A DNA stretch of 32,000 bases from Promethearchaeota archaeon (lineage in GTDB: Archaea; Asgardarchaeota; Thorarchaeia; Thorarchaeales; Thorarchaeaceae), in contig JALVPN010000144.1 in assembly GCA_027031765.1 (NCBI GenBank), positions 43,724 to 75,723 of the forward strand, read 5' to 3'. Under the pieces are notes generated by a model. It searched no databases, had not been told where the DNA came from, and saw only the letters and a list, made by a program, of their open reading frames with translations. The stretch's first letter is position 1. Each line of letters opens with the position of its first letter. The position numbers and the translations under genes were made by a program. Positions 1,488-5,398 of this stretch are shown piece after piece.

Positions 1488-2405
1488 TCAACGGGGCATG
1501 CTTGCAAGCACAATCAGTGGAAATAGGGCTGTCGCATCACCAATCACGGTCTCGAAGTCCGCCCCGCTCTGGACTTTCTGCCATGAAACACCTTCTTGGA
1601 GAGGGGCACCACTCAGACTGCCCGCCTCCGGCCTGTCAAGAGTCATCTGGACAGCCAGGTCCAGTCCACCCTTGAGGATGGTGCTGCCCATGGTGAAGTG
1701 CTTGGTAAGACCACCCCCGAGGATTATGGCCCCGGTCTTCTTGGCCTCGGCCACCAAAGTGCCCAAGAAACGCAGGTCCTTGACAAAGTCGAGAGCGAAA
1801 CGCTGCTGAGTGCTGAACGTGTAGAGGTGGAACCCGAGCATGGAGTCCATCAGGCCCGGGGAGAACACCGGGATGTCATTGAGAGAGGCCTGCCTGAGGA
1901 TAGAGGAGTCATCGGAGAGGCTGGTGCCAAGTGCATGTAGGAACTCGCTTGGCGACATGCTGGTGCGCTGTTCGGACGAGAGGCTGTCAAGAAACCTGTA
2001 GATGTTCTCCTCAAGCACCTCAAAGTCATGGTTGTTAACAACGATGTCGGCTATCCGGCCCAGTCCGGCCGTACGGAGGGCCCCGTCACCAGTCATTGGT
2101 GGCACATGATAGTGTGCCCCCCCATATGCTTCTATGAGGTCATGTACTATGTTTGCGCCACTTGTTACGACGACATCCACAAGGCGCTCCCGGACAAGGT
2201 GGCATATAATCCGACGCAGACCACCGGGCACCATGGGGCCAGATAGGGAGAGGAACGTCAGACAGTCCGGGTCGTCGAACATCCTCCGGACAATTGATGC
2301 TGCCCGGCCAATACGACCGCAACCAAGTACACCGACCTCAGACATCGCGGCAACCAAGTCGCCGATAGAGGTTATGGAGGGAGGGATGTGGGTCACGCGT
2401 TCCAT
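1488..2405 (-). CDS. dys: Deoxyhypusine synthase
   Basis: Motifs FLSLSGPMVPGGLR, VVTSGANIVHD, GGGLTKHF and RPEAGSLSGAPLQEGVSWQK (catalytic Lys retained). Start re-picked to ATG 2405 (MERVTHI, 305 aa), with a TTATGTA TATA-like box about 30 nt upstream; the 2657 extension is not DHS-like. Confidence 0.93.
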   Translation of the reverse strand: MERVTHIPPSITSIGDLVAAMSEVGVLGCGRIGRAASIVRRMFDDPDCLTFLSLSGPMVPGGLRRIICHLVRERLVDVVVTSGANIVHDLIEAYGGAHYHVPPMTGDGALRTAGLGRIADIVVNNHDFEVLEENIYRFLDSLSSEQRTSMSPSEFLHALGTSLSDDSSILRQASLNDIPVFSPGLMDSMLGFHLYTFSTQQRFALDFVKDLRFLGTLVAEAKKTGAIILGGGLTKHFTMGSTILKGGLDLAVQMTLDRPEAGSLSGAPLQEGVSWQKVQSGADFETVIGDATALFPLIVLASMPR

Positions 2406-2726
2406 GGGGCACCACGGCGCCCGCTGTGTGCCGGTACATAAGTCATTCGCAAGAAAGGAGGTGGGGAGGCTCAGGTCAGTTCCGGGAGGGCAAGACCCGA
2501 GCACCCAGGGCCGCAAACGACCCGAGAGTACACCGTAGTGTGTTGATTGATAGTTTTCTCTCGTTGACAGTCCGACCGGGAGTACGTCTGAGGCGTGGAG
2601 GGGGATGGCCGAAACTATTCGGCCGGTGATGTGGCCTCGCCAGCCCGTGATGACCACACCGGCTGGTGGGTGGCAGGAGCAAGTACCACCAGCATTAATA
2701 GAAAGGACACATAGAGTTGAAACGTT

Positions 2727-3308
2727 ATGGGGTCGCTGCTCGATGCTTTAGCATTTGAAGTGGTCATGATTGGGCTCCTGTTCCATTTCCTCTGGGTACT
2801 TGTGATGCGGTCAGCACGTGAGAAGTACCTACATGACCTGAAACTGCTCCGGCCCCCATCGTCTCGTCTTGCAAGGTACTACTCTTGGCGCATAGCTAGC
2901 AAGACAAACATTGTGATAGAGGCGGCTACATTTCTTGTGATGATGACGTCCTGCATCGTGGGAATAATGCAGCTGGTAGTCGGGTATGAGCGCATGGTGG
3001 AAGCATTCCATGTGGTGCTACTAGTGCTGGCGATATCGTGCCTTACAGTCATCCAGAACATCCGTCAGGTTGCAGATGTTGCCACTGGCGAGTCGGAACT
3101 GTTGGCGGAGATTGAGGGGGGCGACACACAGGACGGAGTTGTACGGGGGCTGTTGGAGAGCCTTGGGAACATGACCGCCAGCGACAAGAAACGGGTGCTG
3201 TTCATACTGTTCAGGCTTGCTATGACAGACAGCAGGGCTGGTCGCGTGATCAGGGACGCCCTACGTGAGGCCATGCACCAACCAATGATTGACTGGGACA
3301 ATCAGTAA
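2727..3308 (+). CDS. Hypothetical membrane protein (about 3 TM helices plus C-terminal helical soluble domain)
   Basis: Three hydrophobic segments; ATTAATA TATA-like box at about 2694-2700, about 26 nt before the ATG, consistent with a leaderless transcript. Confidence 0.75.
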   Translation: MGSLLDALAFEVVMIGLLFHFLWVLVMRSAREKYLHDLKLLRPPSSRLARYYSWRIASKTNIVIEAATFLVMMTSCIVGIMQLVVGYERMVEAFHVVLLVLAISCLTVIQNIRQVADVATGESELLAEIEGGDTQDGVVRGLLESLGNMTASDKKRVLFILFRLAMTDSRAGRVIRDALREAMHQPMIDWDNQ

Positions 3309-3369: not shown

Positions 3370-3654
3370 ATGTCGGAGAGCGAGGCCAAAAAGGGCCTAA
3401 AAGGCGTTGTGACCAGCTACCGTAGAGGAAAGCACAAACAGAACCCGAACCAAGTACTCCTTGTCTTCGATGGTGTCACGACTAGGGCACAGGCGGCAGC
3501 GCTCGCTGGACGGAGGGTGCGGTGGGTATCACCTGTAGGGCGTGAGGTGCTGGGAAAGATCTTGGGGCCACATGGCAACAGTGGGGCAGTACGTGCCAAG
3601 TTCAGGACAAACCTCCCAGGACAGGCACTGGGGACACCGGTGTACATAGTCTAG
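3370..3654 (+). CDS. rpl35ae: 50S ribosomal protein L35Ae (eL33)
   Basis: G.V.SYRRGKHKQNPNQVLL, GKILGPHGNSGAVRAKFRTNLPGQALG. Confidence 0.96.
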   Translation: MSESEAKKGLKGVVTSYRRGKHKQNPNQVLLVFDGVTTRAQAAALAGRRVRWVSPVGREVLGKILGPHGNSGAVRAKFRTNLPGQALGTPVYIV

Positions 3655-3680
3655 AGTAGAGGGGTCCGACGAGTAACAAC

Positions 3681-3687
3681 TTTTTAT
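3681..3687 (+). promoter_or_regulatory. TATA box (TTTTTAT) of the C/D sRNA
   Basis: Lies 22 nt upstream of the first base of the sRNA terminal stem; purine-rich BRE-like AACAAC upstream. Confidence 0.7.
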
Positions 3688-3708
3688 CCGGGTCTGCTGA
3701 GAGCTGAT

Positions 3709-3786
3709 GTGGCTCCAATGATGGAGAATGGCTATCGTTAGGGCGTCAGGCCCGATGACGAGTCATAGTTAGACTGAGGGGCCCAC
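3709..3786 (+). ncRNA. Box C/D methylation guide sRNA, predicted to target LSU rRNA helix 69 (A1913, E. coli numbering)
   Basis: Terminal stem GTGGCTCC/GGGG(C)CCAC; K-turn geometry with AAT bulge; box C ATGATGG (3718-3724); C'-like CGATGA (3753-3758); box D CTGA (3774-3777). The D guide GAGTCATAGTTA is the exact reverse complement of the conserved LSU sequence UAACUAUGACUC. Confidence 0.8.
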
Positions 3787-3854: not shown

Positions 3855-4403
3855 TTGAACACAGTAGTCTACACGTTGACATATCTGGTGGCCGGTCTGA
3901 CGCTGAAGACCGGTGACGATGTACTCGACGAGCTCGACATGCCATGGCTAGCATGGACCCCGCTGGTCCTGTCAGGACTGATGTTCGGACTCATAATGAC
4001 CGTTTCACAGTGGGATTTTGCACTGATGACCGCAATAGTGATAGGGGTCACACTCGCGGGCAAGGTGAACAGGGTGGAGTTCGCTGGCGGGTTCATTGCA
4101 CTAGTGGCTGTGCTGGTCTTCGTCGGCCCGCCAACAGTCACCGACCTGGGGGGCTGGGTCACCTTGGTCATTGTGCTGCTCATTGCAGCAGCTGCAGACG
4201 AGGCCGCTGGTAACTGGACCGAGGGGCGGGGTACTTCACCCCTCACATGGCTCCTTGAACACCGTTTCGTACTGAAAGCATGCGCATTGTCGGTCATACC
4301 AATATGGCCACAGTTCCTCCCAGCCGGTCTTGGACTCTGGGTGTTCGATGCAGGGTATGAGATGGCCGGGACACTGGTGAAACGGGCTCAGTCAAGGAGC
4401 TGA
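3855..4403 (+). CDS. Hypothetical polytopic membrane protein
   Basis: TTG start; about 6 hydrophobic segments; acidic motifs KTGDDVLDE, AAADE and DAGYE. Confidence 0.75.
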   Translation: MNTVVYTLTYLVAGLTLKTGDDVLDELDMPWLAWTPLVLSGLMFGLIMTVSQWDFALMTAIVIGVTLAGKVNRVEFAGGFIALVAVLVFVGPPTVTDLGGWVTLVIVLLIAAAADEAAGNWTEGRGTSPLTWLLEHRFVLKACALSVIPIWPQFLPAGLGLWVFDAGYEMAGTLVKRAQSRS

Positions 4404-5398
4404 TATGCCAGGCTGCAGCACACATCAAAGAACTCCGGTACAAGGCCCATCGCCACTGCGGTATCGACCCCCTCCTGGCTCACGTAGGCAATCCCGTTGA
4501 CCCCGGCACGGACAGCAAACTTGTCGGTCTCGACCTTGTGTTGCCCGAGTGGCCGTGCACAGCCCAAGAGTAGCGGGACATCGGCAAGGCCGAGACGTGC
4601 TATGACCATGAGGCGTGCAATGTCCTCAGGCGAAGGGGGGTTGACGTGCGCCATTGGAGTGTGACGGAGAGGGCTCAGTACAATCAGGACTACAGCAGCA
4701 GGATGGGTCTCGGATATGATGTGGAGGGCTTGGAGCTCGCCGTTCAGGCGACCATAGTCCAGGCCGACCAAGACATGTGGGACAACAGGGACACCAGCAC
4801 GTTGCAGGTACAATAGTGACTCCCGCATCAGACGAGGGCCGTCATCCAAGTGGTACACAGAACGGGACACACTACTGCTGCCTATCACGTCGAGCATCGC
4901 TGCATCGACACCCGCCCTCGCAAGGCCCTCGGCAGTCTGGCGTGTGACCAGACCCGTATGTACGACTACCCTCAGGCCGAGTTCGTGTCTGGCCGCTGAT
5001 ATGGTATCGATGAAGCGTGCAAGCGGTACATGACCCGCAATGTCAGCCCCCCCACTGATTAGGACGCCCTCGCCGCCAGCCTCTGCGACCTGTCTGCAGG
5101 CCTCTAGGAGTTCCTTGGGAGTTGGCGCGGGTATCATGGCCCCTAGGAGGCGCCCTCTACAGTGGTCACACTGGAGGGCACACGATGTACCAGTGATGCT
5201 CAGGGACACAAAGTTGTGGCGGCTCTTCTGCTGGTGTGATAGGATCTGATACGGATAGCCCGTGGGGCTGAAACAGAGGAGCCTGTGCCCATGACGCGAA
5301 GTGCGGAGAGAGAATGCTCGTTCCATCCATCGTTGGAAGTCTGTTGGAGAGGCGCCAAGGACTAGGGGGCCCTGCTCAAGGATGTTGAAGCCGGTCAT
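4388..5398 (-). CDS. lipS1: Radical SAM protein, archaeal lipoyl synthase subunit LipS1 type (biotin-synthase-related)
   Basis: CxxxCxxC (CALQCDHC) plus C-terminal GCAR and CC motifs, the auxiliary-cluster motifs described for Thermococcus LipS1. Confidence 0.78.
   Translation of the reverse strand: MTGFNILEQGPLVLGASPTDFQRWMERAFSLRTSRHGHRLLCFSPTGYPYQILSHQQKSRHNFVSLSITGTSCALQCDHCRGRLLGAMIPAPTPKELLEACRQVAEAGGEGVLISGGADIAGHVPLARFIDTISAARHELGLRVVVHTGLVTRQTAEGLARAGVDAAMLDVIGSSSVSRSVYHLDDGPRLMRESLLYLQRAGVPVVPHVLVGLDYGRLNGELQALHIISETHPAAVVLIVLSPLRHTPMAHVNPPSPEDIARLMVIARLGLADVPLLLGCARPLGQHKVETDKFAVRAGVNGIAYVSQEGVDTAVAMGLVPEFFDVCCSLAYQLLD

Follow-up and report, generated by a model that had tools for sequence, protein, structure and literature searches.

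The window, by which we mean the whole stretch of 32,000 nucleotides that was analysed, carries at positions 3711-3783 of its forward strand what is, judged by comparison with its relatives, a real, unannotated box C/D sRNA gene of a Thor-group Asgard archaeon (Table 1). The gene starts 56 nt past the stop codon of rpl35ae, on the same strand. The neighbourhood further includes genes for deoxyhypusine synthase, whose true start probably lies later than in the listed ORF, and for a radical SAM protein, as well as two flanking membrane-protein ORFs (2727-3308 and 3855-4403) that had no Pfam match. Rfam at its gathering thresholds returned no match anywhere in the whole window, and a search of sequencing runs found the locus in one study, of hydrothermal-vent metagenomic DNA, and listed no RNA run with it. 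A literature search returned no paper combining Asgard archaea with box C/D sRNAs.

Table 1. Features of the sRNA gene and its neighbours, in window positions.
Feature	Position	Strand	Basis or remark
Deoxyhypusine synthase, N-terminal extension of ~100 aa in listed ORF	1488-2657	-	
rpl35ae (ribosomal protein L35Ae)	3370-3654	+	Pfam PF01247, E 1.4e-22; upstream of sRNA
TATA-like promoter element CTTTTTATC	3680-3688	+	window sequence; family motif A[G/C]TTTTATC
Terminal stem, 5' arm GGCUCC	3711-3716	+	pairs with 3778-3783 (6 bp)
C box AUGAUGG	3718-3724	+	window sequence
D' spacer AGAAUGGCUAU, 11 nt, putative second guide	3725-3735	+	faces 23S GUAGCCA, E. coli 1930-1936
D' box, degenerate: CGUUA instead of CUGA	3736-3740	+	comparison with 50 homologues
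Internal hairpin GGGC-GUCAG-GCCC, between D' and C'	3741-3753	+	4 bp
C' box variant UGACGA, non-consensus	3756-3761	+	alignment to homologues
D spacer GUCAUAGUUAGA, 12 nt	3762-3773	+	positions 2-11 pair with 23S CUAACUAUGA; position 5 = U3769
D box CUGA	3774-3777	+	window sequence
Terminal stem, 3' arm GGGGCC	3778-3783	+	pairs with 3711-3716
Radical SAM protein	4388-5398	-	

The hallmarks of a C/D sRNA are present: a C box, a D box and a terminal stem for a K-turn, all conserved and covarying in homologues, together with a D spacer that forms 10 contiguous base pairs with helix 69 (H69) of the organism's own 23S rRNA. The terminal stem and the internal hairpin account for the length of the RNA, 73-76 nt, and of the internal boxes C' is a variant and D' degenerate. 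As the fold of the single sequence is only slightly better than that of shuffles (z -2.0), the case for an sRNA rests on comparison with relatives. An earlier note on this DNA had described a TATA box, a terminal stem, C and D boxes and an internal stem, and had taken the whole for a box C/D guide RNA of an Asgard archaeon; all of these elements are confirmed in the sequence, including the string GAGTCATAGTTA at 3760-3771, and the family members are labelled Thorarchaeota.

BLAST recovered 13 clear homologues among 40 relatives, and a covariance model built from 14 sequences and then run on 151 genomes of the phylum matched 47 of them. The sRNA is found in 24 of the 26 sampled genomes of the organism's own family and in the single genome of a sister family, whose 66-nt version is without the internal hairpin; six further families give weaker but clear matches, in genomes titled Heimdallarchaeota (including the closed genome of Heimdallarchaeum endolithica), Njordarchaeota, Hermodarchaeota and Promethearchaeota. 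Boxes, stems and spacer lengths are conserved in successive sets of 14, 35 and about 50 homologues; the last set, of distinct sequences from genomes labelled Thorarchaeota, retains both the boxes and the guide. Within the 14-sequence alignment the UGAU of the C box is invariant, and among 50 homologues this box reads AUGAUGN, GUGAUGN or AUGACGA, the D box is CUGA in 45, and the C' position holds CGACGA in 29 and UGAUGA in 4. The D' box is CUGA in 33/50, CCGA in 7/50 and CGUU in the window alone (1/50), and the core of the D guide, UCAUAGUUA, is invariant across the family. Double compensatory changes affect 9 of 11 stem pairs (5 of the 7 aligned pairs of the terminal stem and all 4 of the internal hairpin), a figure equalled in 0 of 500 shuffles, and slid controls collapse. 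The TATA motif is present at 53 of 59 homologous loci, with a fixed 29-nt offset in 43 of them. By these comparisons, the boxes, stems and guide of the window are far beyond chance. One relative (G015; L019:2160-2300 (-) and L019:1496-1570 (-)) has, directly 3' of rpl35ae, a remnant with the D guide and CUGA and no recognisable C box, and a complete copy of the sRNA about 700 nt beyond it, which suggests that the gene was duplicated and that one copy then decayed.

The target can be read from the organism's own 23S gene (C103:9-2154, L001), which is cut at the contig end and stops soon after H69-H71, at E. coli ~2000. Its H69 region reads GGGAC-UAACUAUGAGUC-UCUUAAGGUAGCCAAAUGCC, and since 23S matches were obtained in 14 family genomes and 13 of these show the identical H69 string, the 23S contig is no binning error. 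The 16S gene (C48:5221-6067, L211) is also cut at a contig end, with model positions 4-828 present. By the D+5 rule, position 5 of the D spacer faces the second A of UAAC, the equivalent of A1913 (E. coli positions as given by the Dennis alignment). The duplex has a computed energy of -12.8 kcal/mol, with spacer positions 1 and 12 mismatched, and in the 2.95-Mb assembly the target 10-mer occurs in the 23S gene and, in antisense, in the sRNA gene itself, and nowhere else. The archaeal C/D RNP is said, in work by Yang, Lin and Ye in PNAS in 2016, to accommodate a maximum of 10 bp at positions 2-11; if so, the pairing of the D guide lacks nothing. A1913 lies two nucleotides before yeast psi2258 (E. 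coli 1915) and thus corresponds to yeast Am2256, which in H69 is guided by snR63 (PMC2794176). Judged by pairing and register, the sRNA most likely directs sugar methylation of the A1913-equivalent adenosine of H69.

The earlier note had already aimed the D guide at this adenosine and equated it with the yeast snR63 site, which holds; the Rfam SNORD46 consensus has the same guide. The details need correction. Its 12-nt guide was begun two letters early, the first GA being the end of the C' box in the alignment; the spacer proper is the canonical 12 nt, GUCAUAGUUAGA, and set against the organism's own 23S it gives 10 contiguous pairs at positions 2-11 and not 12 of 12. Nor does the guide need a eukaryote-type GACUC stem, as had been supposed, since H69 of this organism has GAGUC and the extra GA is C' sequence. 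The closing pair of H69 is flipped in the Thor family (C1910-G1920) relative to E. coli and eukaryotes, and in two other Asgard families (G031, G033) H69 is of the eukaryote type, GACUC.

Guide and target change together. Spacer position 2 is G where the 23S has C1910, as in Thor and Heimdall genomes, and C in the relative G048, whose 23S has G1910, in Thermoproteota guides and in the SNORD46 consensus; G1910 is also the letter of the published crenarchaeal 23S alignment (Dennis 2015, PMC4644070). In G048, with A1918 in its H69, position 10 is U; Thermoproteota guides have G at position 8, which fits the UAACUCUGA of crenarchaeal H69 in the same alignment. The register relative to the D box is thus fixed across lineages and the letters track the local rRNA, a covariation that is the strongest in-silico evidence for functional guide-target pairing.

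The second spacer is less clear-cut. Its GGCUA is invariant in the 14-sequence alignment, and in relatives a normal D' box comes right after GGCUAU. The in-register duplex with GGUAGCCAAAUG, the strand immediately 3' of H69, spans 4-10 bp (mode 8) in 50 homologues and 7 bp (-9.7 kcal/mol) in the window, with spacer position 5 facing the C1934 equivalent. The target was sought in the organism's own 23S up to E. coli ~2000, and the missing 3' part could hold another one. With a 7-bp duplex and a uniquely degenerate D' box, a second methylation is doubtful in this species; asymmetric assembly, as reported by Tran et al. in 2003, is said to lower activity in characterised archaeal systems. The earlier note had let the 5' segment pair with UUAAGG. 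This pairing, UGGCUAUC-g-UUAG with UUAAGGUAGCCA, does fold in silico; it is not conserved, its 3' part being the D' box CUGA in relatives, where the guide extends toward GCCAAA instead, and we reject it because its letters are box sequence there. We also discarded two contigs, C67 and C211, which carry the exact 11-mer of the D' spacer and, 1-2 kb off, a one-mismatch D target (or its complement) in unrelated coding or repetitive sequence.

The genome encodes all three core proteins of a C/D RNP: fibrillarin (295.6 bits) and Nop5 (221.8 bits), whose genes adjoin on contig C217, and L7Ae, whose family is represented by two genes (94.9 and 69.2 bits). By analogy with archaeal C/D RNPs that have been characterised, we infer that the sRNA is transcribed, assembled into an RNP and used for methylation. 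The terminal stem would unite the C and D boxes into a K-turn, which L7Ae would bind, recruiting Nop5 and fibrillarin; the C'-D spacer would pair with the loop and 5' strand of H69 over its 10 bp, and fibrillarin would then 2'-O-methylate the adenosine that faces position 5 of the spacer. As to the upstream spacer, it may act as a guide for the strand just 3' of H69 or only tether the RNP there, a role made doubtful here by the degenerate D' box.

The location of the RNA invites another reading, namely that it is a structured 3'-UTR or a regulatory K-turn element of the rpl35ae mRNA and no separate gene. Its same-strand position shortly after the rpl35ae stop is conserved in the Thor family: wherever a Thor-type locus extends far enough in the 5' direction, a same-strand L35Ae gene immediately precedes the sRNA. 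However, a conserved TATA motif stands at a fixed distance between stop codon and RNA, a K-turn with a regulatory task would have no use for 10 nt complementary to rRNA, and homologous RNAs of other Asgard families and of Thermoproteota have no rpl35ae nearby, all of which leaves this reading highly improbable. A different doubt concerns function: the RNP could be mainly an rRNA folding chaperone or tether for H69-H71 that leaves one of the sites, or both, hardly methylated or unmethylated. The target sites of the two spacers are ~20 nt apart, an arrangement that Lui et al. (PMC6009581) read as chaperone-like, and the D' duplex is short, with a degenerate D' box in the window. Yet the D+5 register is exact across phyla while the letters covary with the target, as selection on the methylated nucleotide itself would predict, and fibrillarin is present; we consider a mainly chaperone-like role very unlikely and retain the reading of a separate sRNA gene that would guide methylation.

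The same D guide in the same register is found in Asgard sRNAs beyond the Thor type, namely in those of Heimdall type and f17/f18 type, which often have an internal hairpin, are not linked to rpl35ae and carry a partner guide against the neighbouring 23S strand. This partner guide is UUGGCUAU in the Thor type (against ~1930-1937), ACAAGGCAUU in the Heimdall type (~1937-1946) and AACCCGGCAAG in the f17/f18 type (~1943-1953). At f17-type loci (L074:14-69, L082:151-206, L089, L096) a second C/D sRNA, AUGAUGA-AAGCYUGGAGC-CUGA..., lies directly upstream as a tandem pair; in Rfam it matches sR families of Pyrococcus type below threshold. When the whole collection was scanned for the exact string of the Thor and Heimdall types, 96 stretches were found, and among the 80 matches listed nearly all are Asgard; this enrichment mirrors the distribution of UAACUAUGA in H69 among lineages and does not make the function exclusive. 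Three archaeal matches (L087, L088, L109) and seven bacterial ones among those listed are without C/D architecture and were put down to chance.

Our guide survey covered the Asgard phylum, 401 Thermoproteota genomes and one small non-Asgard GTDB phylum. In a like-for-like pattern search, 34 of the 401 Thermoproteota genomes matched, against ~6 control hits, 25 of them with a crenarchaeal-type core, and on inspection the matches are mostly complete C/D sRNAs. Their partner guides face the same neighbouring 23S strand (AAGGCAUU... or ...CGGCAAG...) as those of the Heimdall-type and f17-type Asgard sRNAs, the order sometimes being swapped. For example, the loci L180, L182, L183, L188-L199, L204, L207 and L208 carry, beside an H69-A1913 guide, a partner directed at the adjoining strand (AAAUGCCUU or CUUGCCGG), and in L188-L199 the guides are swapped, with the H69 guide in the D' slot. 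Position 5 of several of these partner guides faces the A1938 equivalent, which is yeast 2281 by the +343 offset of the Am2256 mapping and which we take to be the snR13 site Am2281. Among the 66 genomes of the small non-Asgard phylum only one matched, a MAG named 'Thermococci archaeon B88_G9' (G157; L130:1540-1640 (-)), with a compact sRNA, GGCC-...-GGCC, that has the identical core in the D' slot, matching H69, and a second guide, UACGGAUCGGCU.

A guide of this kind has also been described before. Sac-sR113 of S. acidocaldarius (PMC4644070) is a dual-box sRNA with the D spacer CUCAGAGUUACU before CUGA, and its core, UCA-N-AGUUA plus two nucleotides, stands in the same register as that of the window. 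The identical register on the H69 loop means that the same A1913-equivalent adenosine is selected, and a sequence identical to Sac-sR113 was recovered in our Thermoproteota sample (L209). The literal guide strings are absent from the supplements of Dennis 2015 because crenarchaeal H69 differs by one letter, and the variant string finds Sac-sR113. NeqsR22 and MmasR107 touch H69 as well and were set aside, as they select other nucleotides. Helices 68, 69 and 71 are methylation hotspots in hyperthermophilic archaea (Dennis 2015, PMC4644070).

The guide is therefore no Asgard innovation, and the specificity to Asgard archaea and eukaryotes considered in the earlier note is unsupported by the note's own yardstick, given that the same register occurs in Thermoproteota sRNAs and in the MAG labelled 'Thermococci'. 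Taking all comparisons together, we hold it very probable that an archaeal box C/D sRNA, with a predicted Am at the A1913 equivalent, is transcribed independently from 3711-3783 (+) and belongs to an old group of H69-A1913 guides found in several Asgard families and in Thermoproteota.

A further question is that of descent: is the RNA the specifically Asgard-derived ancestor or orthologue of snR63/SNORD46, handed from Asgard archaea to eukaryotes? The predicted site equals yeast Am2256, the SNORD46 consensus has GUCAUAGUUA two nucleotides before CUGA, as in the window, and the guide recurs widely among Asgard families (47 of 151 genomes), which supply most archaeal matches among those listed for the collection-wide scan. 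A permissive Rfam search of the window (E<=10), moreover, lists just two snoRNA families, of which SNORD46 (RF00218) is one. SNORD46 reaches 13.4 bits, however, where the threshold is 40 (E 3.9 for 281 nt searched), and yeast snR63, which has only the predicted target nucleotide in common with the window, is not among the Rfam matches at E<=10; both results speak against such a descent. The earlier note had given the 3' end of SNORD46 correctly, the Rfam consensus ending in GUCAUAGUUACACUGA, and had pointed to AGAAU...UUAGGCG after box C as a second likeness, which also matches the consensus. This second likeness, AGAAU...UUAGGGCG, is confined to the window and absent from all 49 other family members, relatives reading GGCUAU-CUGA-GGG there; it arises from a private D'-box mutation plus the hairpin stem and is thus a coincidence. 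The degenerate D' box, which had been read as snoRNA-like, is likewise private to the window genome (1 of 50 homologues), so that neither feature is a snoRNA-like trait of the family.

Beyond the boxes and the guide we found no derived feature shared with SNORD46 or snR63. As the likeness to SNORD46 ends there and the guide is dictated by a conserved target, sequence gives no means of showing homology at the level of the gene, and with the same register in Thermoproteota, in Sac-sR113 and in one non-Asgard MAG, a handover specifically from Asgard archaea strikes us as quite unlikely. Somewhat less unlikely, though still improbable, is that the H69-A1913 guide with its H70/H71 partner guide constitutes one orthologous sRNA lineage, older than the split of Asgard archaea and Thermoproteota, that continues as snR63/SNORD46. 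A possible lead comes from an f17-type homologue (L074:122-167 (+)), which Rfam matches to snoR442 (RF01232) at 20.5 bits (threshold 50), with letters outside the H69 guide included (GCAAGCC...GGCG-UGA), and to sR19 at 22.2 bits (threshold 45); both sub-threshold matches are to this homologue and not to the window, and a literature search returned no paper on snoR442. The snoR442 match may be a lead to a eukaryotic relative, or a coincidence.

Asgard C/D sRNAs are essentially unannotated, and the present locus yields a concrete prediction: the residue of H69 in bridge B2a should be an adenosine with a 2'-O-methyl group. That the guide register recurs, with covariation, in several Asgard families and in Thermoproteota suggests that methylation of the A1913 equivalent is unusually ancient among archaeal sites, which in turn tempers claims about the transition from Asgard archaea to eukaryotes. 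Were a single lineage the true explanation, this would be among the very few methylation guides traceable through eukaryogenesis, and it would depart from what has been published, namely that the exact methylation sites of archaea are as a rule not shared between groups. The relevance of our results lies mainly in genome annotation and in the choice of sites for RiboMeth-seq on cultured Asgard archaea.

Among known systems, Sac-sR113 is the archaeal counterpart that shares the register. It differs in one guide letter (G for U), which fits the crenarchaeal H69, in its D' spacer, which is without a predicted target, and in having no long terminal stem, no internal hairpin and no linkage to rpl35ae. 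The eukaryotic SNORD46 and snR63 are box C/D guides for a 2'-O-methyl adenosine of the H69 loop, the very site predicted here; they are longer and without a second rRNA guide, and SNORD46 has C at spacer position 2 (for G1910) where the window has G (for C1910). With the site of methylation predicted from the guide, the sRNA described here is a functional counterpart of snR63/SNORD46.
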